From Desulfobacteraceae bacterium (GTDB taxonomy: Bacteria > Desulfobacterota > Desulfobacteria > Desulfobacterales > Desulfosarcinaceae), in the NCBI GenBank assembly GCA_037387725.1, contig JARRKU010000065.1:7008-49475 (forward strand): a stretch of DNA of 42,468 bases. The letters run 5' to 3'. The translations under genes and the position numbers were made by a program. The notes below the pieces were generated by a model. The model had not been told where the DNA came from and made no database searches. It was given only the letters and a program-made list of their open reading frames with translations. Below are positions 6,874 through 42,468 of the stretch, piece after piece; position 1 is the first letter of the stretch, and every line of letters starts with the position of its first letter.

Positions 6874-6878
6874 CACCA

Positions 6879-11843: not shown

Positions 11844-12017
11844 GAATCTTCCGCCCTTCTAAGGGGTCAATGCGTGGGATTAGCCATTTTTCTGTAGTGA
11901 TATTGTACACATACCACGGCAATGCAGGCGCCACAAGTCTCATGGTCGGTAGAATTGCCGAAGCATGGCATTCACCCTCTGCCCGTCAAGAAAGGACGAT
12001 CGACACGGAGCGGCAGG

Positions 12018-12857: not shown

Positions 12858-13145
12858 GGTGTCACTCCTTCGCATAACTTGGTCCTTTTTCGCCAATCCG
12901 TTACCATCCTTTATAGGAAGCTGACGCGTCTACCCACACCCCATGTCTGCCCAATCGTTGCATGATAAAGTGGTAAATGGCTTGCAAAGCCACATGGCCG
13001 ACCCAACAATTTTGGCCGACACCACAACTTCGAACCGATGTTTTTGTAGGGCGGGGCTCCGTACCCAGCACAACTGTCTGCGATGGCGTACCCTTGCCGC
13101 CGTATTCTGGCGTCCTCCATCGGCAGCGCAGCATCGAACGATGTC

Positions 13146-13541: not shown

Positions 13542-13585
13542 TGCATCACCTCATCAATAAATTGTTATCGTCGATGCAGGCGCTA

Positions 13586-14120
13586 TCACAGGGCAAGGAT
13601 CATGACATTCCTGCGTGTGCCTGCCGTCTTTACAAATTGAAACCCCGCCTTCTCAAATGTTGAGACAAAACCCATAAACGTGTAACTCGGCGAGTCATGT
13701 GCAACAGGATAGGCTTCGATGTATCGGGCGCCGTTGTCCCTGGCATATTGAACGGCCGCATCTATCAGCCGCGATGTAATGCCCCTGTTTCTGAAGGGAC
13801 GTTTGATAAAAAAGCAGACCAAAGACCATACGCGATCTTTAGCTTCGTCTCCACCCAACGATCTGTAAGTATCGCGCGGAGCGATCGAACACCAGCCAAT
13901 CGGTTCATCTTCGAAGTAGGCAAGCAGCCCGATGGGCACACCGCGATGGACAAGGTCGCAAATCGAAGCCTTCCTGCCCGCTTTTCCGGATATCGTTGTT
14001 TTTGTAGGTATTGATCCGCCAAGCCATGCACCAGCAATAATGGGGGCCGCCCCTGCTTTCAAATAGCTGCTCGAAATCACTCCAGCGATCGGGTGTAACG
14101 GGATGGAAGTCGGGGTTCAT
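13586..14120 (-). pseudogene. GNAT-family N-acetyltransferase split by a frameshift
   Basis: N-terminal part (MNPDFHPVTPDRWSDFEQLFESRGGPHYCWCMAWR) is in the frame of ORF 13905-14120. The GNAT core (RNRGITSRLIDAAVQYARDNGARYIEAYP) is in the frame of ORF 13586-14080. The overlap contains a T5 run at about 13993-13997. Confidence 0.55.
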
Positions 14121-14184
14121 TTGAGAAAACGCATTTTGCGCCCTTTAATCTGGATTTGCCAAATTGCAGCGCAACGCAGCGGCA

Positions 14185-14607
14185 TCATTTAATGTAGTAA
14201 CCGGATACCCGCCATTTTCCATCTGCGTCTAACATGGGGGTTACGGTTTCGATGGCTGATTGTTTATTTTCAAAAGCAGTGCTGAACTGAATCACCACAT
14301 ATTGTCCGTCCGGCGCCCCCGGCAAGGATGTTCTGTAGGCGATGCGCTTAGGCACTCTGGACAGGAGCCTGCCAAGGGGCGTTCGCACAGTGCGGAGCAT
14401 CTGCACCCACTGCTCCTTGTTTACGGCATTCTTGAAGTAATCTGCTGCACTGTCCCAACTGTCGGCATAGGCTTCCTCGTCAACCCGCTGCAACCATTCC
14501 AGCGCGCTCGCCTTTGCAGCCTCCTTCTTTCCGGTATCGGCCATCGCGCATGACCACGCAACAAGCAGCATCCCAAGTGAAAGGATATACACGCGCCTAT
14601 TTATCAT
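14185..14607 (-). CDS. DUF4019-like secreted protein
   Basis: ATG 14607 with RBS GGGAGGTG. Signal peptide MINRRVYILSLGMLLVAWSCAMA. Body matches the DUF4019 pattern as recalled (ending ...DGKWRVSGYYIK). Confidence 0.6.
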   Translation of the reverse strand: MINRRVYILSLGMLLVAWSCAMADTGKKEAAKASALEWLQRVDEEAYADSWDSAADYFKNAVNKEQWVQMLRTVRTPLGRLLSRVPKRIAYRTSLPGAPDGQYVVIQFSTAFENKQSAIETVTPMLDADGKWRVSGYYIK

Positions 14608-14650
14608 TGTCACACCTCCCTTTTTGATAGGTCCAGCCGATCCGATCATT

Positions 14651-15466
14651 TCACCCCAAAGCCACGTCAAGGAGCATCATTACGGAAAAACCCGCCATGG
14701 TCATCATGGTAACCGTATCGATGTTTTCCATTTTTCTCTGGGATTCGGGTATGAGTTCCTCAACCACCACAAAAATCATGGCACCCGCCGCAAAGCATAA
14801 CGCATATGGCAGAACACTTTGCATTTTTAACACGAACAAGGCGCCGAAGACACCTGCGATGGGCTCCACGACGCCCGACGCCTGCCCCATGAAAAAGCTC
14901 TTGCCCTTTGACAATCCTTCTCTTCTCAGGGGCATGGAAACGGCTGTGCCTTCAGGAAAGTTTTGTAGACCGATGCCAATGGCCAGCGCTATAGCGCCGC
15001 CAAGCGTTGCAGAGGGAAGGTTGGCGCCAACCGCACCGAAAGCAACGCCGACCGCCAGGCCTTCGGGAATATTATGCATTGTAATGGCAAGCACCAGCAG
15101 CGTGCTCCGCTGCCACGAGGTTTTGATGCCTTCGCTTTTATCGATACTCAGGTTCGGGTGAAGATGGGGAAGAAATTTATCCGTCAGCCGCATGAACAAC
15201 CCGCCGGCCATAAACCCGATAACCGCTGTCAACCATGGTATTTGTCCCAAATTTTCAGCCATCTCGATACCCGGAGCGAGCAGAGACCAGAAACTCGCCG
15301 CAACCATAACGCCCGCTGCAAATCCGAGCATTGAGTCCAAAAGTTTCTGGTTAACGCCGCTGGTCACATAAACGAGCGCAGCGCCGGCCGCCGTTACCGC
15401 CCAAGTGAATAGAGTGGCAACAAACGCCTGACCAACCGGGTTGAATTGTTGGATAAATTCGATCAT
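14651..15466 (-). CDS. zupT: ZIP-family metal transporter
   Basis: 271 aa, 8 TM, with the conserved [10 protein letters not shown] and HxxPEG motifs. Confidence 0.9.
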
Positions 15467-15700
15467 ACGGCTATTTCCTTACGCTAAAGTTCACACGGCC
15501 GCCAGCCAATCCAAACGGCTGAACATCACAAATCCCGCTTCAACGATTGGCGGACACCAGTGGCCCAAAATGCCATCATAAGCCTGTTTGCGACTGCTCC
15601 CGCACCTATGGCATCGGCTTCTTTCCGGTTAAACAAATTTAATGGCAACGAAACTAATATGCTATCATTTGAACGGATTTCAAGTATTTTAAAATGCCTA

Positions 15701-16087
15701 TCATCTGATCAAATTAAGACAGTTAAGGCATTTGTATCGCTTTCTAAAAATAAAGATCGGCAATCCCGATAAAAGCGTCAGGGCCGCCGCTTTTCTTGTC
15801 CAATTGATCAAAACCAAATTCAGGGATCCGCATTTATTGCAACGCTCATCATCTGAAATCTCCGGAAATGGAATCCTCTCTAAAGCACTTGAACAATCCG
15901 TATTAAGAACTTTTTGCGCATCCTCGAAGTCGGATTCCAAGATTCGAAGTTTAACGCCACCTATTGCAAGAGAGATGGTCCATTGCATATTGATATGATG
16001 ATCACCAACGACCCATGAAGGTATGCCCTCATATTCCAACCGTGACTTGGCCAGATAAGCCAATGGCGGGTCGATAAATGACCTCAA
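15701..16087 (-). CDS. DUF2007-like putative signal-transducing protein with C-terminal CxxC...CxxC zinc ribbon
   Basis: LAYLAKSRLEYEGIPSWVV...GGVKLRILESDFEDAQKVL matches DUF2007. The C-terminus has CNKCG...CLNC. Confidence 0.55.
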   Translation of the reverse strand: MRSFIDPPLAYLAKSRLEYEGIPSWVVGDHHINMQWTISLAIGGVKLRILESDFEDAQKVLNTDCSSALERIPFPEISDDERCNKCGSLNLVLINWTRKAAALTLLSGLPIFIFRKRYKCLNCLNLIR

Positions 16088-16227
16088 TGTGATAAGCCGA
16101 TAATGCTTTCTATCGATAGCGCTTTTTCCTTACAAGTTCACTTAATGATTTCAGCAATTGTTTTTTAGGCCGAAATCAATTGAAAACAACAGCATCATTG
16201 CCATTGCACTACTTCGAACCATACAAC

Positions 16228-16731
16228 TTACCGCCCCAGCTTTTCTGCGTCCGTTGACGTTTCTTGTCTGACATTGATTTTCTCCTGGATAGCTTCAACG
16301 AATTTCTTATCCAACCCATTCTCACTGGAAACCGGAAAGCTAATTTCCATTTCTGATGATGTGGTTACCATGACATAGGAATCATCCCAAAACGAATCGT
16401 CATACTGCACGACTAGAGATACGATTTGATCAAAGGGAATGATCGTCTCGGGTTCTTCCCAGCTGCTTGAATATGCGATCAGATTTCTGTCCGTTACGAA
16501 ATAGAGGCCTGTCTTGATATCAAACAAGGCATCAGAATAGAAGTATCTGATTTGCTCATCTTCCTGGAGCAGGTTGAGCGACCTTATCGTCTTCATATAT
16601 TTCTTGGGAATTTGACGGCCCGGATACACCGCCGTATCAGGCCCACTAAATAGAATTGTGACAAATGCAATGAATATCAGCCCGATAATGGAGACACAGC
16701 CTAACCCTGTGTACTTCAGAGTCTTATTCAT
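16228..16731 (-). CDS. Membrane-anchored hypothetical protein
   Basis: N-terminal TM anchor (GLGCVSIIGLIFIAFVTILF). AT-rich. No known family recognised. Confidence 0.5.
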   Translation of the reverse strand: MNKTLKYTGLGCVSIIGLIFIAFVTILFSGPDTAVYPGRQIPKKYMKTIRSLNLLQEDEQIRYFYSDALFDIKTGLYFVTDRNLIAYSSSWEEPETIIPFDQIVSLVVQYDDSFWDDSYVMVTTSSEMEISFPVSSENGLDKKFVEAIQEKINVRQETSTDAEKLGR

Positions 16732-16921
16732 TTATTCCTTTCTTCCTGCCCCCGAAAGCGGACTGTTCACAGAACCATAATTAATAGCGCACAAGGATGC
16801 AAAAGCCCCTCATCCGAGAATTGTAACAAGTTGATCATCTGCATTGATCGATCACCTATTTTTCGAAATATTTTTGAACAGTGTCGATTAGTGGTCCTCG
16901 CTGTCCTTCACCATCGGGTTG

Positions 16922-17320
16922 TTACGCGTCGTTTTTTCCATACACCACAAGGGATCCGACAGCAAAATCGTGAATTGCTCTTTTATTTCTCGAGAATGGA
17001 ATTGTAAAAAATGAAAGCAACCCCAGGACAATTTTTACGATTATTCGCAAATAAGCCTGAACGATGGATATTTTCTCTCCTGTTGAAAATTTCCGGATTC
17101 GGATACCCGTAACTTTTTGACCGAGCGTGCAATAAAAGGCCGTAAAGATCGGTTCGTAAACAAAAAACATAAAGAGTATGATAATGATTCTTACGTTTAT
17201 TGCAGTGGCGTTTTCGCTATCCAAAATATAAGAAGATAGAAAAAGCATACCGATTATGAACAAACCATCAATGAATGTAGATAAATATCTCCTGAGAATA
17301 CCAGGATGTACGATCTCCAT
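16922..17320 (-). CDS. RDD-family membrane protein
   Basis: RRYLSTFIDGLFI... with 3 TM and a C-terminal RAIHDFAVGSLV motif typical of RDD. Confidence 0.6.
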   Translation of the reverse strand: MEIVHPGILRRYLSTFIDGLFIIGMLFLSSYILDSENATAINVRIIIILFMFFVYEPIFTAFYCTLGQKVTGIRIRKFSTGEKISIVQAYLRIIVKIVLGLLSFFTIPFSRNKRAIHDFAVGSLVVYGKNDA

Positions 17321-17419
17321 ATTTGAAAATTCCTTTATTTACGATTAAAAATATAAGGCGAACGAAAGGCGGAGACGCGCGTCTTCTTTGCGTGCTGTGT
17401 CTCAAGCGACATGTGCCAT

Positions 17420-17995
17420 TCATTCATTATTAATTAATTTCAGCTGTTTATAGACATCATCCAAGGTAATAACCTCGTTTTCCCGAGGAGGATCGATTTT
17501 AATTGAATCGCCAGTTGTGAAGACCGTTGTTACATATCCTTCAATTATCTCAATCTGTGATGATAACTTTCTAACTGAAGGATCTAACGAAGACTCCTCC
17601 TTAACAAGTTCAACATCACACCCCATATAATAAACCTGCAATGAAAAAACACCTATGGGTGCCGGAAACCTGAATCCTGTTTCTACAATATACGGAGGAG
17701 AATCACCGTAAGGAAAAATGTCCTCGGATAAAAACTTCTCGCTATTTAAATACACGACCAAATGGCATGATGACGGTGGGGAAGGTTTCCACTTATCTGC
17801 TTCCTCCGGGGGTAAGTCTTTTGGTTTTTCTATTGAGGGTATCTGATCATCGAACAGTTCAACTTCGACCCAACCATGCGGTTGTGAGGTAATATATGCT
17901 TTCCGGCTTTCGCTGATATTGGCAACAACTTTTTTTGCACAGCCCAGCACCGTCAGCATGATGCAGAAAATAATTACGATATGCTCAATCTTCAT
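17420..17995 (-). CDS. Hypothetical lipoprotein
   Basis: Signal peptide with lipobox VLGCAK. No known domain. Confidence 0.55.
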   Translation of the reverse strand: MKIEHIVIIFCIMLTVLGCAKKVVANISESRKAYITSQPHGWVEVELFDDQIPSIEKPKDLPPEEADKWKPSPPSSCHLVVYLNSEKFLSEDIFPYGDSPPYIVETGFRFPAPIGVFSLQVYYMGCDVELVKEESSLDPSVRKLSSQIEIIEGYVTTVFTTGDSIKIDPPRENEVITLDDVYKQLKLINNE

Positions 17996-18049
17996 GCTAT
18001 CTCCATTGTGATTAAAAGGACCTAATAACCGGCGAGTATGCGAATCCGA

Positions 18050-18853
18050 TTAATTTTCTTGTTGGACGGCAACGGATCGACATCTTAGTTTAAACCCATT
18101 TGCTTTTGCGTCTGCAGTTATTGCAGTTGCCACTCTAGTGGCCTTCTCATATGTTGGAGTGGAAATTAGTATGCCACCATTCGTATGAATATCAAGCATC
18201 ATTGAGATTGCATCTTCTTGGGTCATGTTCAGGTGGGTCGTTAAGCTGGATACCACAAATTCCATTGTCGTGTTATTGTCATTTAGAATCTCTATACCTG
18301 TTGTAAAATCTGGCGGCATGAAACCCTGAAGCTGCGTCAGCCGAGTTTTTGAGGAAAACGTAGCTGATGTGTCAGGATAAGAGTAATGCCGTCCACGCAC
18401 TCGGTTAGCCAGTAGCTTCCACAGCAAATAGCCATCTGTCCCGAAATCATCGCCATGGCGTTTATGGGGAATGAGATTCAATACAAGAACTATACCATTC
18501 GCAATAGTGAAAGTTATGACTAAGCATGTACCGAAAATCGAAGTTGGATTTCCAAAGATAATTAGATAGGAAGCGGTACCGAGAAGCAGTAGCGCCTGCG
18601 CCAATATACCTGCAGAAGAAAATGCTATTGCTGTAATGAAATTAGGTGGAGGCTCTGTTATACATAAACCACCTGCACCTGAAATCTCTAAGCTAAAAAC
18701 CTTTAGCCCCAAAATACGAGCTGCAGATGCATGTCCTAGTTCATGAAGAATAATGAGCAGGGTGTACGCGATACAGAAATAGATCGTTTCAGGAATTGCA
18801 AACTTTATAATAATATAGATCAGCAATCCTGCTGCTGGGACCGACCAGAGCAC
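18050..18853 (-). CDS. M50-like (site-2-protease type) membrane metalloprotease fused to a C-terminal ClpS-like domain. Start uncertain.
   Basis: HELGHA in a TM helix plus NLIPHKRHGDDFGTDG (the NxxPxxxxDG motif). The C-terminal ~80 aa (ILNDNNTTMEFVVSSLTTHLNMTQEDAISMMLDIHTNGG...) follows the ClpS adaptor pattern. The long ORF (to 19111) overlaps the upstream SLT gene, so the start is probably the internal GTG at about 18853. Confidence 0.6.
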   Translation of the reverse strand: MLWSVPAAGLLIYIIIKFAIPETIYFCIAYTLLIILHELGHASAARILGLKVFSLEISGAGGLCITEPPPNFITAIAFSSAGILAQALLLLGTASYLIIFGNPTSIFGTCLVITFTIANGIVLVLNLIPHKRHGDDFGTDGYLLWKLLANRVRGRHYSYPDTSATFSSKTRLTQLQGFMPPDFTTGIEILNDNNTTMEFVVSSLTTHLNMTQEDAISMMLDIHTNGGILISTPTYEKATRVATAITADAKANGFKLRCRSVAVQQEN

Positions 18854-18912
18854 ATAAACTGGTATATCTTTTAGAAATGTAATTTTTACCGCAGAATTTG
18901 CAAATCGCCGCG

Positions 18913-19512
18913 TCAGCTTTTGCGGTAGATGCGAAAGGCCCGCATTACTTTTCGGACGTAGCGTTGGGTTTCCGGGTAGGGGGGAATATCGTTGTACTTT
19001 TCCACGGCCGTGGGGCCGGCATTGTAAGCGGCCAGTGCCAGGTCGACCTGCCCGCTGAAGCGTTCCAACATGGTCTTGAAATAGAAGGCGCCGCCCATGA
19101 TGTTCTCCCACGGGTCGAAAGGATCGTTGATATTAAGCTTATCCAGATTCTCCGGCATGATCTGCATCAGGCCCAGGGCCCCTTTTTTGGAGACGGCTCT
19201 GGGATTGAAGTAGGATTCCACATGGATGACGGCTTTAAGCAGGGAGGAGGAGAGGCCGTTGCGCGCGGCCGCCTCTGATATGACGTCGTCGTAGTTTTTG
19301 ATGTTGTAAAGGGCGCTGCGGTATTTGGAAGGTTCCGGCATATACACTTTGTACTTGCTGGAGGTGGGTGTGTTGGTGAAATGCAGCACTCCCTGGCTGT
19401 CCACGTATAGATAGATATCCGCTTGTGCGGCGGAAGTGACAAAAAGCGTCACCCCGATGACAATAAGCTTAAGCGTCCATTTGATCCGTTTGTTTGCAGA
19501 ATGCTTTTCCAT
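18913..19512 (-). CDS. Lytic transglycosylase (SLT domain), secreted
   Basis: Signal peptide. SLT motifs ES...GLMQIMP and AAYNAGP. Confidence 0.85.
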   Translation of the reverse strand: MEKHSANKRIKWTLKLIVIGVTLFVTSAAQADIYLYVDSQGVLHFTNTPTSSKYKVYMPEPSKYRSALYNIKNYDDVISEAAARNGLSSSLLKAVIHVESYFNPRAVSKKGALGLMQIMPENLDKLNINDPFDPWENIMGGAFYFKTMLERFSGQVDLALAAYNAGPTAVEKYNDIPPYPETQRYVRKVMRAFRIYRKS

Positions 19513-29075: not shown

Positions 29076-29148
29076 TGTCTGGTACAGGATTCGAACCTGT
29101 TACACCTGCAGTAAAAGTGCAGTGCTCTACCCATTGAGCTAACCAAGC
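29076..29148 (-). tRNA. tRNA-Lys (anticodon UUU)
   Basis: Minus-strand sequence GCTTGGT-TA-GCTC-AATGGGTA-GAGC-A-CTGCA-CTTTTAC-TGCAG-GTGTA-ACAGG-TTCGAAT-CCTGT-ACCAGAC-A. Cloverleaf is intact except for a C2:A71 mismatch in the acceptor stem. 3' CCA is not encoded. Confidence 0.8.
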
Positions 29149-29497: not shown

Positions 29498-31132
29498 ATG
29501 AAAACAACCGCCATCGGGCTTCTGGGCCCCACCTTGGATACCGGCAAACGCGAATCCCGCTGGGAGCGATGGCGCCCCACCGTCGGGTTGTGCCAGCAGA
29601 AGGATCTGACCATCCACCGCTTCGACCTGCTCTACCAGACCCGTTTCAAGGGCCTGATGCAGCGGGTGTCGGAAGATATCCGCATGGTGTCGCCGGAGAC
29701 CGAAGTGGTGCCGCATCCCATCACCTTCCGCGATCCGTGGGACTTTGAAGAGGTCTTCGGCGTGCTGCACGACTTTGCCTCGGCCTACGCCTTCGACCCG
29801 GAAAATGAAAAATACCTGGTGCACATCTCCACCGGCAGCCATGTGGCGCAGATCTGCCTCTTTCTCCTCACCGAAGCGCGCTACTTTCCGGCCCGCCTGG
29901 TGCAGACCGGCCCGGTTAAAAAGGTTCGGGGTGCCGATCCGGCGGGCACCCATACCATCATCGATCTCGATCTTTCGCGTTACGACCAGCTGTCCGGACG
30001 GTTTCAAAATGAGCTGGACGACGATCTCTCTTTTTTGAAATCAGGCATCGCCACCCGCAACCCCGGCTTCAACCGTCTGATCGAAAAAATCGAGCGGGTG
30101 GCCATGCAGTCGGTGGACCCCATCCTGCTCACCGGCCCCACCGGCGCCGGCAAATCGCGACTGGCCCGGCGCGTGTATGATTTGAAAAAGGCGCGCCACC
30201 AGCTGGCAGGGGAATTCGTCGAGGTCAACTGCGCCACCTTGCGCGGGGATGCGGCCATGTCCGCCCTGTTCGGGCATAAGAAAGGGGCCTTCACCGGCGC
30301 ACTTCAGGACCGGCCGGGGTTGCTGCGGGCCGCCGACGGCGGCATGCTCTTTCTGGATGAGATCGGCGAGCTGGGGCTCGACGAGCAGTCCATGCTGCTG
30401 CGGGCCATCGAGGAGAAGACCTTTCTGCCCATGGGATCGGACCGGGAGGTCCGCAGCGACTTTCAATTGATCTGCGGCACCAACCACGAACTCGAGCGGG
30501 ATGTGCAAAAGGCAAGGTTCAGGGAGGACCTGCTGGCCCGAATCAACCTGTGGACCTTTCGCATGCCGGGGCTGCGGGACCGCAGCGAAGACATCGAGCC
30601 CAACCTCGATTACGAACTGGATCAGTTTGCCCGCAGGACCGGGCGGCGGGTGACCTTCAACAAAGAGGCCCGCCGTCGCTTTCTCGACTTTGCCGTCGCT
30701 CCTGCCGCCGCATGGCGGGCCAACTTCCGCGACCTCAACGGTGCGGTCACCCGCATGGCCACCCTGGCCCCGGGCGGGCGCATCACCCTTGCCGAGGTGG
30801 AAGAGGAAAAAGTCCGATTGCGCACCGACTGGAGCACTATCGCCCGTCCCATTGAGCGGCGGCGATCCTACCTGGCAGCTATCCTGACAGAAGAACAGCA
30901 GGCGGCCATCGATCCCTTCGACCGGGTCCAGCTGGAAGAGGTGCTGCGGATCTGCCGTGCATCGCGCAATCTGTCCGAAGCGGGGCGCCGCCTGTTTGCC
31001 GTATCGCGGCTGGCCAAGAAAAAGCCCAACGACGCCGACCGGTTGAGAAAGTACCTGGCCAGATTCGGCTTGAAGTGGGATGACATTACGGCGCCTGCCG
31101 TTGATCAGGCCACCCCTTTGAAACAGGCTTAG
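29498..31132 (+). CDS. rtcR: RtcR-like sigma54-dependent transcriptional activator (N-terminal CARF-type domain, AAA+ sigma54 module with GAFTGA, C-terminal HTH)
   Basis: N-terminus MKTTAIGLLGPTLDTGKRESRWERWRPTVGLCQ parallels the RtcR CARF domain. Walker A GPTGAGKS, GAFTGA loop, and C-terminal HTH (NLSEAGRRLF). Confidence 0.85.
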   Translation: MKTTAIGLLGPTLDTGKRESRWERWRPTVGLCQQKDLTIHRFDLLYQTRFKGLMQRVSEDIRMVSPETEVVPHPITFRDPWDFEEVFGVLHDFASAYAFDPENEKYLVHISTGSHVAQICLFLLTEARYFPARLVQTGPVKKVRGADPAGTHTIIDLDLSRYDQLSGRFQNELDDDLSFLKSGIATRNPGFNRLIEKIERVAMQSVDPILLTGPTGAGKSRLARRVYDLKKARHQLAGEFVEVNCATLRGDAAMSALFGHKKGAFTGALQDRPGLLRAADGGMLFLDEIGELGLDEQSMLLRAIEEKTFLPMGSDREVRSDFQLICGTNHELERDVQKARFREDLLARINLWTFRMPGLRDRSEDIEPNLDYELDQFARRTGRRVTFNKEARRRFLDFAVAPAAAWRANFRDLNGAVTRMATLAPGGRITLAEVEEEKVRLRTDWSTIARPIERRRSYLAAILTEEQQAAIDPFDRVQLEEVLRICRASRNLSEAGRRLFAVSRLAKKKPNDADRLRKYLARFGLKWDDITAPAVDQATPLKQA

Positions 31133-35408: not shown

Positions 35409-35543
35409 AATATCGAACAAGGAACCGCAGAATGTCGAAATTAAGCATTCTGTCATTTATATATATAAGAATGGCAGAGCGAAGCGATTCCACACTTCGA
35501 CATTCGAAATTCCTTGTTCGATATTCTGCGGTTCTATCCCGCC
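35409..35543. repeat. Palindromic repeat element B, inverted relative to element A, overlapping the recD2 stop
   Basis: GGAATTTCGAATATCGAACAAGGAACCGCAGAATGTCGAA ... CCACACTTCGACATTCGAAATTCCTTGTTCGATATTCTGCGGTTC. Confidence 0.7.
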
Positions 35544-37711
35544 AGGTCCGGGTTTAACCGCCACCCCAGCAAGGATCGGCGCTGGTTGGGCGCGTCGGCC
35601 TGGACCGCCACGCGCACGGCCTTGGCCGAGCCGACCAGGATCACCATCCGCCTGGCGCGGGTCAGGGCGGTATATAACAGATTCCGCTGCAGCATGATGT
35701 AGTGCTGGGTGACCATGGGCAGGATAATCACCGGGTACTCGGAGCCCTGGGACTTGTGCACGGAGATGGCGTAGGCCAGGGTCAGCTCGTCCAGGTCGGC
35801 CTCGTCGTAGGCGACCTCCCGGCCGTCGTAGCTCACCCAGAGGCGCGCCGCCTCCCGGTCCAGCCGCGCCACCGTGCCGATCTCGCCGTTGAAGACCTCC
35901 TTTTGATAGTTGTTGCGCAGGTGCATTACCTTGTCGCCCAGGCTGAAGGCGTCCCCCTTTTTCACCTGGGGGTTGAGGGCGGTCTGCAGCAGGCCGTTCA
36001 GGGCCATGGTGCCCAGATTGCCTTTGTGCATGGGCGTGAGCACCTGCACATCGGTGACGCCGTCCAATCCCAACTGACCGGGAATCTTCTCTTTGCAAAG
36101 GGAGAGGATGATGCCGGGTATGTTGTCGGGCCGCAGTTCTTCGATGAAGGTGAACTCGGCCAAAGTTGCATCTTTCGGCGCCGGCGCCATCTCTGGCAAT
36201 TCCCCCTGCCGGACGCGATGGGCATTGGCGATGATGGGACTCATGGCTGCCTGGCGGAAGACCTCGGTGAGGGCAAAAGCGGGAATCATCCCGGTCGCCA
36301 TCAGATCCCCCAGCACCGTCCCCGGCCCCACAGAGGGCAGCTGGAAGACATCGCCCACCAGGATCAGACGGGCGCCGTGGGGCAGGGCCCGCACCAGATG
36401 GCCCATGAGGGCCAGGTCCACCATGGAGGCCTCGTCCACCACCACCGCCTCGGTATCCAGGGGATTGTCCTGGTCATGCTCGAAATGGCCTTCGGCGAGA
36501 TTGAACCCCAGCAGCTTGTGCAGGGTGGCCGCCGGACGGTGAGCCACCTCGGAGATTCGCCGGGCGGCCCGGCCGGTGGGCGCGGCCAGCAGATAGGCGA
36601 TGCCCGACGCTTCGAACATGGCCGCAACGGCCCGTATGATGGTGGTCTTGCCGGTACCCGGACCGCCGGTGATGATCACCAGTCGCTGGTTCAGCACGCT
36701 CTGCAGCACGGTCAACTGGGTCCGGGAGAGCTGAATGGCCAAACGCCGCACAACGGCCTCGGCAATCTGCCCGGCGTCCACATCCGCATGCGCCACAGGA
36801 ATGGTCAGCATGGCCTGGAGCCGCTGGGCGATCCCGGTCTCGGCAGCATAAAGCGCCTGCCGGTAGACCGGCTCACCGGGCGCCTGACGGTCGATGACGA
36901 TCTCCCGGTCCTCGACGAGTTGATCCAGAGCATCCTGCACCGCATCGTAACTGAGATGGAAGGCCTGATCGCAACTCGCCTCCACCTCGGCCCTGCCAAC
37001 GAACAGATGCCCCTTTTCCCCGGCCTCGTAAAGCAGGTGACACACACAGGCCCTGGCCCGATCTGTTTCGTCGATGGGCCGATCGGATTTCCGTACGATG
37101 GCATCGGCGATATAGAACCCGATATGGGGGATGTCCGACGCCACTTTATAGGGATCGTTTTTCAGGATCTCCAGGGCGTCCGGGCCGTATGTCTTGTAGA
37201 TGCGCGCGCCATAGGCCGGTTTGACGTCATTATCCTGCAAAAACTGCATCAGGGCTCGCACGGCGTGATGCTCCTGCCAGGCCTGGGCTATTCGCCCGGC
37301 CCGGTCCCGGCCGATGCCTTTGACCTCGGTCAGCCGGTGCGGGGCGCTTTCAATGACCGACAAAGTCTCCTTCTTGAAGTGCGCAATCAGCCGCTCCGCC
37401 GTCTTGGGGCCCACCCCCTTGATCAGGCCGGAGAAGAGATAGTGCCGGATCTCTTCGATCCCGGAGGGCAGCAGCACTTCAAAGGCGGCCACCTTGAACT
37501 GCTGGCCGTAGCGGGGATGGGTCTCCCAGCGCCCTTTCAGGCGCAGGGTCTCGCCGGGCCGCGGCTCGGGAAAGTGGCCCAGCACCGTCACCAGGCCGCG
37601 CGCCTCGGCCACCCGCAGCTTGGCGATCATGAAATGATTCTTCTTACTGCGGAAGGTGATGCGCTCGATCTGGCCTTCGATGGTGTTGGGAGAGGATACA
37701 GCCATGGTCAT
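35534..37711 (-). CDS. recD2: RecD2-type ATP-dependent DNA helicase (SF1)
   Basis: 725 aa from ATG 37711. HhH region and Walker A GGPGTGKTT. Its start abuts and overlaps the gmhB stop. Confidence 0.9.
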   Translation of the reverse strand: MTMAVSSPNTIEGQIERITFRSKKNHFMIAKLRVAEARGLVTVLGHFPEPRPGETLRLKGRWETHPRYGQQFKVAAFEVLLPSGIEEIRHYLFSGLIKGVGPKTAERLIAHFKKETLSVIESAPHRLTEVKGIGRDRAGRIAQAWQEHHAVRALMQFLQDNDVKPAYGARIYKTYGPDALEILKNDPYKVASDIPHIGFYIADAIVRKSDRPIDETDRARACVCHLLYEAGEKGHLFVGRAEVEASCDQAFHLSYDAVQDALDQLVEDREIVIDRQAPGEPVYRQALYAAETGIAQRLQAMLTIPVAHADVDAGQIAEAVVRRLAIQLSRTQLTVLQSVLNQRLVIITGGPGTGKTTIIRAVAAMFEASGIAYLLAAPTGRAARRISEVAHRPAATLHKLLGFNLAEGHFEHDQDNPLDTEAVVVDEASMVDLALMGHLVRALPHGARLILVGDVFQLPSVGPGTVLGDLMATGMIPAFALTEVFRQAAMSPIIANAHRVRQGELPEMAPAPKDATLAEFTFIEELRPDNIPGIILSLCKEKIPGQLGLDGVTDVQVLTPMHKGNLGTMALNGLLQTALNPQVKKGDAFSLGDKVMHLRNNYQKEVFNGEIGTVARLDREAARLWVSYDGREVAYDEADLDELTLAYAISVHKSQGSEYPVIILPMVTQHYIMLQRNLLYTALTRARRMVILVGSAKAVRVAVQADAPNQRRSLLGWRLNPDLAG

Positions 37712-38289
37712 CCGCAACAGAGAGGTGGCAGCGGCGGTTCGGACAAAATCAAGTCGGCCGCAGCAGCGAGATCGTCCACCACCAGGGTGGGCGATACCTG
37801 CTTGGCGGCCAGCTCCTTCTCAGCCTGGCGCCCGCAACCGGTGCGCACCAGCATGGTGGCCCCGCAACCGGCATTCTGGCCGCAAAGCACATCCTTGATA
37901 TTGTCGCCGATCATCACCGTACATGGCAGATCAATGGCGTGGGCGGTCTTGGCCTGAAAGATCATGCCGGGCTCCGGCTTGCGGCAGTCGCACTGCTCAT
38001 CGGGGTGGTGGGGGCAGTAGTAAATATCGAAGATCTTCCCCCCGGCCGCTTCAACCGCCCGGCGCATGCGGTGAAACATATCTTCCAGCACCGACAGCGG
38101 CACCATGCCCCGCCCGATAATGGACTGATTGGTAATAACGATCAAATGATATCCGGCCCTGGTCAGGGCCGCCAAAGCCTCCAGGCTGCCGGGAAGAAAT
38201 TCAAATTCCTCCCAGCTCTTGATATAATCGGGTGAGTCCCGGTTGATCACCCCGTCCCGATCCAGAAAGATTACATTTTGCAGTATCAT
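37708..38289 (-). CDS. gmhB: D-glycero-beta-D-manno-heptose-1,7-bisphosphate 7-phosphatase (HAD-IIIA)
   Basis: FLDRDGVIN HAD motif I, CxC zinc site (CDCRKPEPGM), and the GDxxxD motif. RBS GGGAG. Confidence 0.85.
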   Translation of the reverse strand: MILQNVIFLDRDGVINRDSPDYIKSWEEFEFLPGSLEALAALTRAGYHLIVITNQSIIGRGMVPLSVLEDMFHRMRRAVEAAGGKIFDIYYCPHHPDEQCDCRKPEPGMIFQAKTAHAIDLPCTVMIGDNIKDVLCGQNAGCGATMLVRTGCGRQAEKELAAKQVSPTLVVDDLAAAADLILSEPPLPPLCCG

Positions 38290-38549
38290 GGCTCCCGCAT
38301 TTCCGATTACAGCTTAAACCGTCCGGCAAAAGGCAACAGCGGCAATGATCAAGATCAGCCCATACCGCATGAAGCCTAAATCATTAACCCATCGAATGCA
38401 ATTATTCATCACCGTGATGGGGACACGCATAAAATCAAATAAATCGCCACCCGACCCATATGACCATCCTGTTGTGGCCCAACACCATAACCGTTAGATA
38501 ACAAATAGTTACAAATTTAACAAGATTCATGGCATAATTCTCCAACATA

Positions 38550-38570
38550 CTTATGTGTCAGACACATAAG
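38550..38570. promoter_or_regulatory. Perfect 10-1-10 palindrome (candidate operator)
   Basis: CTTATGTGTC-A-GACACATAAG in the AT-rich region between gmhB and the first cassette ORF. Confidence 0.4.
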
Positions 38571-38797
38571 TGCGTAATTTAAACATATTGTTGCACTCAA
38601 ACGGATTATCAAAAGGCATAGCAGGGCTATGGAGTGGGACTTTAGATCGATTGAACCACTCGATTATTCAGAGAATATATGATGTAGGCGTGAATCAACC
38701 TTACCGATCTTGGCCTTATAGCGATAAAAAGCAAAATTTTTCCATAATATTGTTGTATATTCCGCAAGAATATCACACAATCATAACAAATACAGAC

Positions 38798-38876
38798 AAT
38801 TAACAAAAAATTGCACTCAATTGCGATTCAGCCGTCTTATCAAAAAGCAGCTGCGGCAGAATCTATAATGTTAAGT
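38798..38876 (+). repeat. attC/attI-like recombination site preceding the first cassette ORF
   Basis: Inverse-core-like AATTAAC (38798-38804), then 65 bp, then core GTTAAGT (38870-38876) 8 nt before ATG 38885. The reverse complement of the core (ACTTAAC) equals the inverse core of the next site. Confidence 0.4.
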
Positions 38877-38884
38877 TTCAAAGT

Positions 38885-39565
38885 ATGAATATACCTTTGA
38901 CATATTATTTTGAATACTGGTTTAAGAATTCTTTGCTGGCTTTGTTAACCGGCTTTTTAATTACTTTTCTAATTCCGCCTTTGTTAGCGGCATTGCCATT
39001 GTTTGGCCTAATTCTGTTTTTAATGTATCAGATGATTATATATCGACATTTTTGGGGAAAAAGGAGAGGAGATTTTGAGTTCTCTTCTAAGGAAAATCTT
39101 ATAAAGAGGAAGATTAATTCCTTTATAAAACAGCAGCTTGGAATAGGGGAATTGATACGTTATAAATTAGACCACCTAAACAGCATTATTACCTATGGAT
39201 GGGATATGTATCATAAGCTTGCGCGACGGTCAGAAAATCAAGATGAAATTTTTCATTATTTCTTAAATTTAATTGGAGCTGATCTTTCTCGAAAGGAAGG
39301 TGACTTTAAAAAGGAACGGGAATATCTAATAAACGCAGTATTAGCGTCCCCAGATGATACAGTATCTAATTTTCGACTTGCAGTTACATTTGAGCAAGAG
39401 GGACGATCTGACGAGTCAGTAAATTATTATAGAAAGGCTTTAGAGGCTTCCTCAATTGATACGCCTGAGCTCAAAGAGTTTATAATGGGTCAAATTACCC
39501 GTGTAATTGAAAAAGGCCCAGCCAAAAGCCCGCCAGTCCCGGGGTTGAGGTTTATGTCATGGTAA
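38885..39565 (+). CDS. Cassette ORF 1: 2-TM protein with TPR-like C-terminal region
   Basis: 226 aa, AT-rich. A hydrophobic hairpin (LLALLTGFLITFLIPPLLAALPLFGLILFLM) followed by a soluble helical domain. Confidence 0.5.
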   Translation: MNIPLTYYFEYWFKNSLLALLTGFLITFLIPPLLAALPLFGLILFLMYQMIIYRHFWGKRRGDFEFSSKENLIKRKINSFIKQQLGIGELIRYKLDHLNSIITYGWDMYHKLARRSENQDEIFHYFLNLIGADLSRKEGDFKKEREYLINAVLASPDDTVSNFRLAVTFEQEGRSDESVNYYRKALEASSIDTPELKEFIMGQITRVIEKGPAKSPPVPGLRFMSW

Positions 39566-39578
39566 TGGGAAAAAGGAA

Positions 39579-39650
39579 ACTTAACCATGCCTTTCACTCG
39601 GATGGCAATTCCGCTGCGCTACATTGCCACCGGTGAAGGCGGCGTTATCT
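39579..39650 (+). repeat. attC-like site 1
   Basis: ACTTAAC...imperfect palindrome with bulges (GCCTTTCACTCGGATGGCAAT / ATTGCCACCGGTGAAGGCGG)...GTTATCT. Starts 14 nt after the ORF1 stop. Next ORF starts at 39669. Confidence 0.5.
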
Positions 39651-39668
39651 TCGTAAGGTGGAGGAACT

Positions 39669-39977
39669 TTGGGAAAGATTCTATTTAAAGTATCTGGAGC
39701 ATATGATCTATCCGAGTATCGATGGTGGCACGATTCTGAAGATGGGAAAAGTTATCTTTACCTCGAATTTAAAGGTGGAGATGGCGAATGCGCTATCAAA
39801 TTTACAAATCCTTATTCAATTGATTCAACTTTTGAGCTTTTCGAGGATTTTCATGAACTCGTTGTGTATGATTCGAAGGAAGATCAGTGGGAAAAACATA
39901 CGGTTAAGGCTGAATATTTCGTTGAATCATTTCATGAGTTTTGGGCAGAGGCATTTGATATAATATCGGGCAGATAA
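39669..39977 (+). CDS. Cassette ORF 2: small acidic cytosolic protein (102 aa)
   Basis: TTG start with strong SD AGGTGGAGGA 5 nt upstream. No family recognised. Confidence 0.45.
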   Translation: MGKILFKVSGAYDLSEYRWWHDSEDGKSYLYLEFKGGDGECAIKFTNPYSIDSTFELFEDFHELVVYDSKEDQWEKHTVKAEYFVESFHEFWAEAFDIISGR

Positions 39978-40097
39978 CCTTGCTGTCCAGAGGGACAGCA
40001 AAGGCCGGGCCACTATGAAAGATATTGCTTTATCAAATTTAAAACCGTTTACAAAGGTCAGTGGAAGCCCTTGCTGCCCCTGACCGCAGCGTTAGGG
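39972..40097 (+). repeat. attC-like site 2
   Basis: AGATAAC (contains the ORF2 TAA), CTTGCTGTCC-AGAG-GGACAGCAAG hairpin ... CTTGCTGCCCCTGACCGCAGC GTTAGGG (40091-40097). Next ATG at 40105. Confidence 0.5.
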
Positions 40098-40104
40098 GGG
40101 GCTC

Positions 40105-40554
40105 ATGGCAGATGATTTGTTTGATAAGCAACACGATGAACCACTTGTAATAGCGCTAAAAAAGGATGATCCTGAGTTGTTAAAGTGTACGAAGAAGGCT
40201 CAAGAGACACTTCAGGTTTTTCTTGATCTTTATGAACAGTATCATAAGGATATTTCGATATACTTCGCCATTAAGGTACCAATAGAGACCGATGATGATC
40301 CAGTTCATCTTTGGTATTCATTTAATGGTATAGAAAAAGGTTTGCTGGTAGGAGAGCATTTTCAAATTCCACAGGGGTTTGAACACTTAAAGAATATTAA
40401 GGTTAAGCCTGAAATCATCGAAGACTGGATGATAAATGACCATGAGATATTGTATGGCGGTTTTTCATTAAGGTATCAACGATCATTGCTCCCTGAGGGA
40501 CGAAGACCAAAATATGATGAGTATATGGGGGTTAGGGAATATAAAGATATTTAG
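40105..40554 (+). CDS. Cassette ORF 3: hypothetical protein (149 aa)
   Basis: RBS AGGGGGGG. Hydrophilic protein, no confident family assignment. Confidence 0.5.
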   Translation: MADDLFDKQHDEPLVIALKKDDPELLKCTKKAQETLQVFLDLYEQYHKDISIYFAIKVPIETDDDPVHLWYSFNGIEKGLLVGEHFQIPQGFEHLKNIKVKPEIIEDWMINDHEILYGGFSLRYQRSLLPEGRRPKYDEYMGVREYKDI

Positions 40555-40555
40555 C

Positions 40556-40613
40556 CCCTAACAATCGGCTGTTGGCGAACTCGCTTTGCTCGCCGCAAAG
40601 CCGCACGTTCGGC
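40556..40613 (+). repeat. attC-like site 3
   Basis: CCCTAAC 2 nt after the TAG, AATCGGCTG ... GCTTTGC-TCGCC-GCAAAGC hairpin ... CCGCAC GTTCGGC. Next ATG at 40631. Confidence 0.5.
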
Positions 40614-40630
40614 GTCTAAAGGGACAACAT

Positions 40631-41281
40631 ATGGCTATGCAACTCTCTCATGCTTTACTGGAAATGCATGACATTCGGATTTTTCGAGTCGAAGATTCAG
40701 AGGAATTTGATTCTGACAACTTCATAAAATGGGACGTGACTCCCATTGAAACAGATGTCCTTTTGGAACAGGATGGTTTATTTATTTTACGCGCATTTCA
40801 GATTAAGGGACCCAACGAAAAAATTGACTGCTTCATTGATCTGACAATGCCCGAAAGAATAGCTGATTATGCTTATTTCATAGGTTCTGGCAATGTGGAA
40901 CGTAAGTATCTTCACGAATGTGATGGTAATGTTATCTGTGCTATACCGATTGATGGTCACGGCGTATATGATCTATTTTATTCAAAAATTAATCCTGACC
41001 TCGGGCTGTCAGTCCTCCGACGAGGGCTTGAGCTTGCTACTCGGAAAGTTTTCATAGCAGAGGATCTTGGATATATTTTACGCGATGAAGGCCGTATTGA
41101 AGAGGCGATAGAAGCGTTTAGTATATCAGCCTCTGAAGAACCATCGTCATACTTCATATATCACGAACTTGCAGAACTTTACGATCAGCTGGGTCAGACC
41201 GAGCTTTCAAAACAGTACCGCGACAAGTGCCCAAAACAGGATACTCAAATGAAAAGAAAACCGTGGTGGAAGCTATGGTAA
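40631..41281 (+). CDS. Cassette ORF 4: hypothetical protein with TPR-like C-terminus (216 aa)
   Basis: ATG 40631 preceded by AAAGGGA. No known family. Confidence 0.5.
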   Translation: MAMQLSHALLEMHDIRIFRVEDSEEFDSDNFIKWDVTPIETDVLLEQDGLFILRAFQIKGPNEKIDCFIDLTMPERIADYAYFIGSGNVERKYLHECDGNVICAIPIDGHGVYDLFYSKINPDLGLSVLRRGLELATRKVFIAEDLGYILRDEGRIEEAIEAFSISASEEPSSYFIYHELAELYDQLGQTELSKQYRDKCPKQDTQMKRKPWWKLW

Positions 41282-41283
41282 AT

Positions 41284-41344
41284 GCCGAACCTCTCGCTGG
41301 TGAGGACGGCGAGGACCATGCCGCCTCACAGCTTGGCGTTGTGC
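41284..41344 (+). repeat. attC-like site 4
   Basis: GCCGAAC 3 nt after the TAA (the exact reverse complement of site 3's GTTCGGC core). GCTGGTGAGG ... CCTCACAGC with one bulged base. Ends GTTGTGC. Next ATG at 41361. Confidence 0.5.
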
Positions 41345-41360
41345 GCCTCGATATTGAGCT

Positions 41361-41747
41361 ATGAACGAGAATAATCTAAAATACAGCCCCCTCCCGCATT
41401 ACACGTCAAAAGAGCAAATTGAACGTGTTCTTGAAGGAGATGATGTTGAGGAATTGATTAGGTTGCCGCTGGCGATAGGCTCCTCATATCATGATTGGAA
41501 ATATGCGCAAGACACTTGCATAAAGCTATCAGAGTATGAGGATGCTAGAATAAGCTCTAATGCGTGCTTGGGATTAGCATATGTCGCAAGAAATCATTTG
41601 AAGCTTGAAAAGCATTTGATAAAGCCAGTCCTGATTAAAGAATTAAGAAAAAATCACAAATATAATTGGCGTGTAATTGATTCAATTGAGGATATAAATA
41701 GGTTCATGAAATGGAATATTGCTATTAAACACTTTCAAAATAAATGA
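41361..41747 (+). CDS. Cassette ORF 5: hypothetical protein (128 aa)
   Basis: AT-rich ORF, no known family. Confidence 0.5.
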   Translation: MNENNLKYSPLPHYTSKEQIERVLEGDDVEELIRLPLAIGSSYHDWKYAQDTCIKLSEYEDARISSNACLGLAYVARNHLKLEKHLIKPVLIKELRKNHKYNWRVIDSIEDINRFMKWNIAIKHFQNK

Positions 41748-41754
41748 GAAGATC

Positions 41755-41824
41755 GCACAACATTTGTGTTCAGCGGATCGCGAGGACCATGCGCCCGCTG
41801 AAAAAACGGTATTGTGGGTTTGAT
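41755..41824 (+). repeat. attC-like site 5
   Basis: GCACAAC (the reverse complement of site 4's GTTGTGC core). TTCAGCGG ... CCGCTGAA 8-bp arms. Ends ATTGTGG/GTTTGAT. Shares the 13-mer GCGAGGACCATGC with site 4. Confidence 0.5.
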
Positions 41825-41834
41825 CGAAATTGGT

Positions 41835-42275
41835 ATGAGTCTATCTGAATTACAAAAGAAGGGACTCGACATAAAAAAATCGAAAAATGTAGCGAATCTT
41901 CCTAATCCGGAGCATTATCAAATCGACTCTTTAGGAATCGATTTTGAAATATACGATAGTAAAATAATTCGTATTTGGTTTTTTACCGAAAAAAATAAAT
42001 CATTTCAGCTTTGGCTACCAAATGAGTCCTCAGAAAGGCTGCTATATAAAATTTCGGCTTCTGACATTATTCGAAACTTTGGGGTAGTAAGAAAATATGT
42101 TGATGAGAATCCTCCAAAAGATAAAGATGAAGCGCAGTGGGCAAAATACAAACCATTTGGAATAAAGATAAACACGATTTATTATCCGAAATTGCCCTTT
42201 CATTTTGGATTAAATGATGAGGATAATGTTTCTTATCTAACCGTATCTAAATGTAAAACAGAAACTGCGCAATAG
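41835..42275 (+). CDS. Cassette ORF 6: hypothetical protein (about 147 aa; alternative GTG start at 41814)
   Basis: AT-rich ORF, no known family. Confidence 0.45.
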   Translation: MSLSELQKKGLDIKKSKNVANLPNPEHYQIDSLGIDFEIYDSKIIRIWFFTEKNKSFQLWLPNESSERLLYKISASDIIRNFGVVRKYVDENPPKDKDEAQWAKYKPFGIKINTIYYPKLPFHFGLNDEDNVSYLTVSKCKTETAQ

Positions 42276-42281
42276 GGTTTC

Positions 42282-42384
42282 ACATAACATCTATATGGCC
42301 TTCCGTTGTCAAGGAATAAACCACCCCACGGGATCGGAAGAAGTGAAAAGTCCAAAATCCGGTAAAACTCTGAAGAGTTGACAA
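42282..42384 (+). repeat. attC-like site 6
   Basis: ACATAAC 7 nt after the TAG. Inverted repeats CTTCCG/CGGAAG and GTTGTCAA/TTGACAAC. GTTGACA core at 42378-42384. Confidence 0.4.
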
Positions 42385-42468
42385 CGCGTTTGGTAACTCC
42401 GACTTTGGCTTTCAACAGCAGGCATCAGACAGCTTTCCAGCGTCTGCACCAAACATCTATCGAAATTT

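Follow-up and report, generated by a model that had tools for sequence, protein, structure and literature searches.

Cury et al. (2016, IntegronFinder, PMC4889954) defined clusters of attC sites lacking an integron integrase (CALINs) as two or more attC sites that lie on one strand, less than 4 kb apart and without a nearby intI, and listed insertion at secondary sites, loss of intI and rearrangement as their origins. The secondary-site (attG) route was shown experimentally by Loot et al. (bioRxiv 10.1101/2022.09.11.507474), who proposed it for small CALINs. We analysed a 42,468-nt stretch of the Desulfobacteraceae bacterium assembly GCA_037387725.1 (contig JARRKU010000065.1, positions 7,008 to 49,475; hereafter the window, whose numbering is used throughout), for which a preliminary description had proposed that an integron-type array of cassettes and attC sites, without an integrase beside it, lies next to the gene gmhB. 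Covariance models, folds, non-synteny and metagenome contexts supported this proposal, and positions 38871-42292 are very probably a genuine integron cassette array without an integrase in cis, a CALIN, located beside gmhB on a Desulfobacteraceae chromosome. The array contains four intact attC sites and a fifth that is halved, and its far end is broken. The novelty earlier claimed for it was overrated, as integrons and CALINs have already been documented in Desulfobacterota (PMC8618304, PMC9668308).

The clustered attC sites (at least two, as the definition asks) are on the same strand, with no intI in the 38.9 kb upstream. No intI adjoins the array within the window, as it would in a complete integron, and its five heterogeneous attC sites without intI set it apart from a sedentary chromosomal integron. 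Five sites is the reported average CALIN size, and, as in the CALINs of Cury et al., the cassettes are of unknown function and include no resistance genes, and there is no recognisable intI pseudogene (as in 95% of CALINs; PMC4889954). Nothing essential differs from those CALINs, although the window array is partly decayed (half an attC, and a cassette cut at both ends) and four of its cassettes were directly seen in other arrangements in metagenomes. CALINs with cassettes of unknown function are common, and this array adds an example and leaves the knowledge of integrons unchanged. It is a well-delimited integrase-less array in a Desulfobacteraceae chromosome, from a lineage whose integrons are known and little described, and the unusual direct evidence that four cassettes belong to a live shuffling pool, while the copy in the window decays, makes it a small, concrete case for the questions of CALIN origin and mobilisation in trans. 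The locus is worth re-annotating as a cassette array.

Like sedentary chromosomal arrays such as the Vibrio cholerae superintegron, the locus is chromosomal, has small same-strand open reading frames (ORFs) of unknown function between its attC sites, and contains recurring attC sequence types that are common to arrays of the same environmental pool. Unlike them, it has no intI, recognisable attI or cassette promoter (Pc), has five attC sites against a criterion of more than 19, and has sites that are heterogeneous in length (58-126 nt) and type, whereas the attC sites of sedentary arrays are near-identical. With the class 1 array of plasmid pSTM6-275 it shares a layout of ORF, attC and next ORF a few nt later; one covariance model aligns the sites of both, which agree in the R box, in the internal loop and in having two bulges of a single base on the R''-L'' arm. 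The window lacks the intI1, attI1, 3' conserved segment, transposon or plasmid backbone and resistance genes of class 1 integrons, and its host replicon is a Desulfobacteraceae chromosome. Finally, attG insertions, single attC sites lacking an integron integrase (SALINs) and small CALINs (Loot et al., bioRxiv 10.1101/2022.09.11.507474) also hold cassettes outside an integron platform, and attG insertions have, as here, a first junction at a simple GTT and no adjacent integrase; in the window, however, the sequence flanking the first junction is rich in AT and resembles cassette DNA rather than native core, and there are six units rather than one or two.

Covariance models and folding of the attC sites

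We constructed a covariance model, R1, from a five-sequence seed of attC-like sites on metagenome contigs, none of them from the window, and ran it unfiltered on both strands of all 42.5 kb. Four matches were obtained at E<0.002, every one on the + strand and in a spacer between ORFs: attC1 (3.3e-6), attC5 (2.7e-5, with broken 3' pairs), attC4 (7.2e-4) and attC3 (1.2e-3). A second model, R2, was built by model-guided alignment of 13 metagenome attC sites; it added attC2 at E=6.4e-3, matched attC1 at 2.7e-7 and, like R1, matched attC5 with broken 3' pairs. The five attC matches lie within 2.3 kb on the + strand, the E-values of the model matches within the array range from 6e-3 to 2e-11, and outside the array R2 gave no match below E = 4 anywhere in the window. 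The attC covariance search that had been suggested for this locus thus gave significant same-strand matches in five spacers.

As a control we used the class 1 array estX-psp-aadA2-cmlA1-aadA1 on pSTM6-275, which was located by means of the aadA1 attC sequence. All five of its classical attC sites were found by R2 directly after their genes, together with one further attC (6824-6883) downstream of an IS1203-like insertion; the six sites were on the + strand, each at E<=4e-5. Because R2 recovers the classical class 1 sites, it is a true attC model. Of the cells in its alignment, 87% pair, versus 67% in shuffled alignments (0/500 reach the observed value) and 31-43% in slid controls, two-sided changes occur in 9 of 16 pairs, and the AAC and GTT of the cores are invariant in 13/13 related sites. 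In the RNAalifold consensus of R1, a 4-bp R box is followed by a 2x3 internal loop and then by a 12-bp stem, whose 5' (top-strand) arm has two 1-nt bulges; compensatory changes are present in 10 of 16 pairs.

Folding of the bottom strand gave bulged hairpins, as the preliminary description had expected. The canonical fold was the minimum free energy (MFE) structure for attC1 and attC3, and, with the R box forced, attC2 and attC4 fell short of the MFE by 0.5-1.8 kcal/mol. The fold of attC1 had an energy of -15.9 kcal/mol (z = -3.6) with its bulges on the R''-L'' arm, and the forced fold of attC2 was a long bulged hairpin (-20.0 kcal/mol vs an MFE of -21.8); the MFE z-scores of attC3 (-0.8) and attC4 (-1.1) were unremarkable. 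The core pairs of attC1-4, given in Table 1, only loosely follow the degenerate part of the consensus cores (RYYYAAC / GTTRRRY). At least three sequence types occur among the attC sites of the array, which range from 58 to 126 nt, and long attC sites related to attC2 are present on metagenome contigs L003, L004, L007, L052 and L067. Since both models match these sites, R2 was validated on the class 1 array, and R1 found no attC in 44 gmhB loci (~310 kb), the sites of the window are, in structural terms, ordinary attC sites.

Cassette boundaries, contents and recurrence in metagenomes

At five junctions in a row (38870, 39644, 40091, 40607 and 41338) the R'' core is exactly the reverse complement of the R' core before it; the core pairs are GTTAAGT/ACTTAAC, GTTATCT/AGATAAC, GTTAGGG/CCCTAAC, GTTCGGC/GCCGAAC and GTTGTGC/GCACAAC, and the chance of five exact 4-base core matches at fixed positions is about (1/256)^5. 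This relation between adjacent cores had been noticed before, and it holds at every junction, including the first (GTTAAGT at 38870-38876), which had not been listed. Such complementarity is what cassettes leave behind when they form circles and insert again at G|TT.

The six same-strand ORFs of the preliminary description were all recovered, a single ORF per cassette and all on the + strand (Table 1). A palindrome had been described behind each of them, which is correct for ORFs 1-4, where the palindromes (58-126 nt) start between 6 nt ahead of the stop codon and 13 nt behind it, and where the following ORF begins 7-18 nt past the site. Behind ORF5, however, only the 5' half of a site is present, and the sixth palindrome is not an attC; of the six attC sites claimed, five were found, four of them intact.

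Table 1. Coordinates of the cassette array, its borders and the matching cassette copies on metagenome contigs
Feature	Position in window	Strand	Content
gmhB (D-glycero-beta-D-manno-heptose 1,7-bisphosphate 7-phosphatase)	37708-38289	-	NCBIfam NF006506; core-genome border gene of the array
Head	38290-38869		AT-rich, non-coding, GC 0.39, 579 bp; between gmhB and the first crossover core
R'-type core GTTAAGT	38870-38876	+	crossover G|TT opening cassette 1; reverse complement of attC1 R'' ACTTAAC
Cassette 1	38871-39644	+	ORF1 38885-39565; attC1 39579-39650 (72 nt, ACTTAAC...GTTATCT)
Cassette 2	39645-40091	+	ORF2 39669-39977; attC2 39972-40097 (126 nt, long variable loop, AGATAAC...GTTAGGG)
Cassette 3	40092-40607	+	ORF3 40105-40554; attC3 40556-40613 (58 nt, CCCTAAC...GTTCGGC)
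Cassette 4	40608-41338	+	ORF4 40631-41281; attC4 41284-41344 (61 nt, GCCGAAC...GTTGTGC)
Cassette 5, truncated	41339-41801	+	ORF5 41361-41747; half attC5 41755-41801 (R'' GCACAAC, L'', loop)
Cassette 6 remnant	41802-42292	+	ORF6 reading frame 41835-42275; homology from 41802; R'' core ACATAAC 42282-42288 + 4 nt
Unrelated tail	42293-42468		176 nt, GC 0.46; takes the place of the rest of attC6
Cassette 3 on L003, L004	40058-40613 / 40058-40609		98% identity
Cassette 4 on L007	40559-41340		seven-cassette contig; 98.5% identity
Cassette 5 on L001	41338-41801		100% identity
Cassette 5 on L002	41337-41775		99.8% identity

All six cargo proteins had been described as of unknown function, and we likewise assigned no function to any of them, although ORF3 belongs to a named family, two ORFs contain TPR motifs and ORF6 comes from a truncated gene. 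ORF1 (226 aa) has a hydrophobic N-terminal segment followed by TPR (Pfam TPR_8 match); ORF2 (102 aa) starts with TTG behind GGAGG and has no family; ORF3 (149 aa) matches Pfam DUF2314 at 1.4e-11; ORF4 (216 aa) has a C-terminal TPR and is unrelated to ORF1; and ORF5 (128 aa) has no family. PADLOC and NCBIfam gave no significant assignment for any cassette ORF, and the sub-threshold matches were at chance level (AbiEii on P0001, a homologue of ORF6, and MamA on ORF1 through its TPR repeat). GmhB, ORF1, ORF3, ORF4 and ORF5 are identical to NCBI proteins within MEJ2156908.1-MEJ2156913.1 (locus tags P8X96_16345 to P8X96_16370), of which MEJ2156908.1 is GmhB and MEJ2156909.1 (P8X96_16350) is ORF1. 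In the source annotation, made with the Prokaryotic Genome Annotation Pipeline (PGAP), most cassette genes are hypothetical and ORF3 is a DUF2314 protein. A consensus scan found 15 promoter-like matches against 12.4 expected, a type of scan that cannot demonstrate the absence of promoters.

A homologue of ORF1 with 65% identity lies just after ftsK in a Deltaproteobacteria-type metagenome-assembled genome (MAG; L055 9900-10760, on the 34.6-kb contig CAXCYM010000009.1 of GCA_963986735.1). There, a truncated long-type attC half is fused to the start codon and the downstream R'' is mutated (AACTTATT), and this looks like a domesticated or fossil copy of the ORF1 cassette family. We considered this contig as an informative complete integron and rejected it, as it contains no intact attC and only the truncated half site.

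Copies of the cassettes were found by exact-protein look-up on short JGI and ENA metagenome contigs, a comparison that the preliminary description had also suggested. Cassettes 3-6 recurred in other contexts with different neighbours, at 98-100% identity (L052 excepted), and the sequences broke at G|TT wherever the cassette end was intact. Cassette 5 was found in three left contexts (the window, L001 and L002), which have different attC 3' ends that are all joined at ...|GTTGTGC. The three contexts of cassette 3 (the window, L003 and L004) part directly after GTT, and cassette 4 has other neighbours on L007 than in the window, with divergence after G|TT. Cassette 6 is intact on L052-L054, of which L053 and L054 are 100% identical and L052 87-88% identical to the window. 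Cassettes 1 and 2 were not found in another cassette context on these contigs. Because each junction is contiguous sequence, the multiple contexts are real, and the sequences suggest that the cassettes are drawn from an actively shuffled environmental pool.

The two ends of the array and the search for an integrase

The gene at the left border is an equivalog member of NF006506 (205.7 bits, against a cutoff of 178), and the neighbour previously named as gmhB was therefore correctly identified. It is divergent relative to the cassettes and overlaps the start of recD2 (35534-37717). GC content falls from 0.595 over 20.0-38.3 kb to 0.39, so that the reported turn to AT-rich sequence is real; it begins, however, at 38290 and not at 38.9 kb. 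Logan contig L005 (SRR13768067) is 100% identical to 37605-38577, which comprises gmhB and 288 bp of the head. The gmhB of the closest JGI metagenome relative (L008, 85% identity) has a GC-rich ORF upstream instead of the array, and the cassette ORFs are therefore not syntenic core genes. Synteny with core genes of related genomes had been named as an observation that would speak against a cassette array; the closest relative lacks the ORFs and the 44 gmhB loci lack attC sites.

The head contains no ORF longer than 77 aa and has no Pfam match at E<=10. A bipartite motif (AAC-A-rich-TTGCACTCAA ... TTATCAAAARGCA, then a short hairpin) is present in it as two direct copies that have diverged, which start at 38591 and 38811, span 38582-38650 and 38802-38876, and are 220-231 bp apart; L005 ends just before the first copy. 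This motif pair is unique to the window among the 487 kb of loci compared, and the head has no significant similarity to the head of the array on L007 or to the other array heads compared. At its end is a weak hairpin (38799-38876, fold z = -1.8), which is at most a doubtful additional site 'attC0', as it was undetected by R1 and R2 and its spacers are asymmetric (20 vs 6 nt); the only R2 match upstream of cassette 1 was at 38477-38499 (E = 5). A perfect TATAAT at 38864-38869 abuts the crossover G, with a poor -35 element, and was missed by the promoter consensus scan. When examined as an attI, the head showed the GTT crossover core at 38870 and direct repeats upstream but no recognisable simple site, attI sites being integrase-specific. 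The head could be an attI-like platform or decayed cassette material.

At the distal end, the window is identical to L001 over 41338-41801, after which L001 continues as an intact attC (...CCGCTGACACAAGGCGTTAACT); in the window the 3' arm and R' core of attC5 are deleted and the sequence is replaced from 41802. From that position the window is 100% identical to L053 (to 42288) and to L054 (to 42292). The intact cassette 6 of L052-L054 opens with GTTATGTG and encodes the full ORF, and on L052 and L054 it closes with a canonical 61-nt attC (L052 1200-1260, R2 E=7e-10), so that the junction rule also holds within it (GTTATGTG / CACATAAC). The closest homologues of ORF6 are 188-aa proteins with a hydrophobic, signal-peptide-like N-terminal segment, and one of them, P0001 (188 aa), is 100% identical across the part that ORF6 retains. 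These comparisons show that a deletion joined the attC5 loop (41801) to approximately codon 33 of ORF6 (41802), with loss of the 3' half of attC5 and of the beginning of cassette 6, that the attC of cassette 6 was cut 4 nt past its R'' core, at 42292, and that ORF6 is the 5'-truncated remnant of a 188-aa gene. We also observed that L053 (606-677) and L054 (606-651) carry 100% identical ORF6 cassettes with different attC sites after the common R'' core CACATAAC. This difference suggests that the attC was replaced or that recombination took place in or beside the R'' box, unless the assembly is at fault.

Past 42292, where recognisable cassette sequence ends, the window diverges from both L054 and L052, and the array does not demonstrably run to the window edge as had been proposed. 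The remaining tail contains a 9-bp inverted repeat, CGTTGTCAA (42304-42312) pairing with TTGACAACG (42379-42387), and gave no attC-model match, no Rfam match, no Pfam match on its open frames and no blastn match in plasmids. A group II intron or known RNA was rejected on the Rfam result, and an insertion sequence (IS) or plasmid-borne element on the blastn and Pfam results; the tail may represent either an inserted element or the sequence that flanks the array on its far side. The proposed 'site 6' (42281-42388, ACATAAC...GTTGACA), which extends into this tail, was rejected as an attC, as it had no R1 or R2 match, its forced fold reached -1.9 kcal/mol versus an MFE of -8.5 (z = 0), and the intact cassette 6 of L052 and L054 bears a different, canonical attC.

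Consistent with the statement that no intI is present upstream, Pfam scans of all major window ORFs revealed no Phage_integrase (tyrosine recombinase) domain, and the best tblastn match of IntI1 to the window had an E of 0.59. There was no intI or remnant of it in the 38.9 kb upstream of the array and no remnant in the head or the tail, the search downstream of the array covering 176 nt. A weak tblastn match at the left window end (326-607) was considered as an intI remnant and rejected as noise, its frame being full of stops.

Origin of the array, rival explanations and neighbouring elements

According to the established integron mechanism, which we assume here, the attC bottom strand would fold into the bulged hairpin, IntI would bind this hairpin and cleave the R box between the A and C that complement the core G|TT, recombination of attC with attC would excise a cassette circle, and recombination of the circle with attI or a secondary site would insert it. 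Cassettes 2, 3 and 4, which lie between intact attC sites, should be excisable by an integrase acting in trans, whether encoded elsewhere in the genome or incoming. Cassette 1 has an intact attC on its right side only, and cassettes 5 (with the 3' half of its attC lost) and 6 (cut at both ends) are fixed relics, so that the array is a partly decaying reservoir of cassettes. Its expression would need read-through from the head, possibly with the -10 hexamer at 38864-38869.

Several points weigh against the reading of this locus as an integrase-less cassette array or limit its detail. The attC calls rest on R1 and R2, which stand in for the official IntegronFinder attC model; R2 contains metagenome copies of attC3, attC4 and attC5 and is independent only for attC1 and attC2, and R1 includes a site, d2, that is ~80% identical to attC5, even though it was built without a copy of any window attC. 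The join of the head to cassette 1 (38577-38870) lacks independent support, and mis-pairing by the assembler across repeats can make the long-range order of a contig less certain than its single junctions. As the integrase search covered the window, an intI may lie elsewhere in the genome, even a few kb past the window, and recombination of this copy of the array is argued by analogy with the established mechanism.

As to how the array came about, we give a roughly even chance to its being a fragment of a larger array that lost its integrase, or was separated from it, through a deletion or rearrangement. This origin is favoured because the 579-bp flank of the first junction is AT-rich and cassette-like rather than native, because the far end bears two illegitimate deletions, and because a fossil half attC, described below, lies 22 kb away on the other strand. 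Somewhat short of an even chance is that the locus belongs to a split integron, in which the cassettes are still served by a working intI, accompanied by attI and Pc, at another place in the genome or on the roughly 7 kb of the contig outside the window, and which would be a CALIN by distance only. The 98-100% identity of cassettes 3-6 across arrangements implies recent integrase activity in the population, approximately half of CALINs occur in replicons that encode IntI and rearrangement is among the listed origins (Cury et al., PMC4889954), and the additional, fossil cassette cluster of the contig speaks for a long history of integrons; however, no intI occupies its canonical position in the 38.9 kb upstream, placement downstream is not the known architecture, and the two distal deletions show that at least part of the array is no longer maintained.

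We consider it unlikely that the array was instead built up off target, by an integrase in trans that put the first cassette into an attG-type 5'-GWT-3' site upstream of gmhB and later ones at the resulting hybrid site. The first crossover is indeed a bare GTT (aatG|TTaagt) without an attC-like partner by R1 or R2, no intI pseudogene is nearby, and the attG route has been demonstrated experimentally (bioRxiv 10.1101/2022.09.11.507474), but the 579 bp upstream of the crossover have a GC content of 0.39 and are cassette-like, versus 0.60 in the core. The insertion point therefore looks non-native when compared with the GC-rich DNA upstream of gmhB in the nearest relative, and six cassettes at a secondary site would be less usual than one or two.

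Arrays of cassettes have also been described on phages (PMC9892861), and attC families 82-90% identical to those of the window occur on the viral contig IMGVR_UViG_3300027690_000123. Unlike phage arrays, the array of the window is flanked by the housekeeping genes recD2 and gmhB, and there are no phage genes among the ORFs scanned. The viral contig (119.7 kb; L067, covering its positions 50345-71235) contains at least 10 attC sites, with matches at 5443-14960, directly downstream of ParB_N, Terminase_5 and GpA_ATPase (terminase) genes and followed by a GmrSD-like gene; L066 was likewise listed. L067 is a phage-borne, integrase-less array that draws on the same attC pool as the window, and the two have no cassette ORF in common. 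It would be a long shot to propose that the window locus is one of at least two integrase-less clusters on the contig that are still fed and emptied in trans, with the head as a non-canonical insertion or expression platform lacking an adjacent intI and with a pool shared with phage-borne arrays. If this were true, phages would be carriers of cassettes among sulfate-reducer populations.

It is very improbable that a foreign cassette array was joined to a Desulfobacteraceae core contig by assembly or binning. Such an error would fit the sharp change of composition at 38290, the repeat-rich nature of cassette arrays, which makes them hard to assemble, and the end of L005 at 38577 inside the head. 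L005 nevertheless supports independently, at 100% identity, the link between gmhB and 288 bp of the AT-rich head, no shared k-mer is present at 41801/41802 or 42292/42293 that could cause a false join, the core part of the contig itself holds a fossil half attC of the same family, and ORF1 homologues are annotated in other Deltaproteobacteria MAGs. The notion that the hairpins are terminators or repetitive extragenic palindromic (REP)-like repeats in a horizontally acquired operon or island, to which the close same-strand spacing of the ORFs, the GC-rich hairpins on an AT-rich background and the z-scores of attC3 and attC4 might have pointed, is already refuted by the tests run, because T-tract terminators are absent from the hairpin sites, the attC models that match the hairpins recover classical attC sites, the junction rule is true at every boundary, and the units of ORF and hairpin are found elsewhere in different orders, the breaks falling exactly at G|TT.

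The fossil half attC (16890-16926, - strand) is located at the stop of an RDD-family ORF (16925-17320) and consists of GCGTAAC followed by a type-B attC 5' half, GATGGTGAAGGACAGCGAGGACCA; its Smith-Waterman score against attC4 was 19, compared with 13.9 +/- 1.1 (maximum 17) in 100 shuffles. It lies in a low-GC (0.39-0.48) run of small, unrelated ORFs on the - strand (15500-19100), which include the RDD ORF, a ClpS/M50B-like ORF and ORFs of unknown function, and in which we also observed a decayed attC-like site (18011-18067, - strand). This region resembles another cassette cluster, fossil and oppositely oriented, of which the neighbouring ORFs at 12-15.5 kb (TIR_2, GNAT, DUF4019 and ZIP) may or may not be part. 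The TIR_2 ORF (12021-12896, - strand), at the edge of the low-GC region, encodes a 292-aa protein with an N-terminal TIR_2 domain and a weak ThsB-like PADLOC match (8.6e-5), and is possibly defence-related.

Two further elements of the window were noted. A 146-nt palindromic element (5925-6070) in the ADH-DctQ intergenic region has perfect 16-bp terminal inverted repeats, AACCTATCTCAAAAAA and TTTTTTGAGATAGGTT, and a DNA fold of -29 kcal/mol (z = -5.5), and looks like a miniature inverted-repeat transposable element (MITE) or a REP-type element. The window's only Rfam match at the gathering threshold is a tRNA gene (29076-29148, - strand), which adjoins an RtcR-type sigma-54 activator gene (29498-31129).

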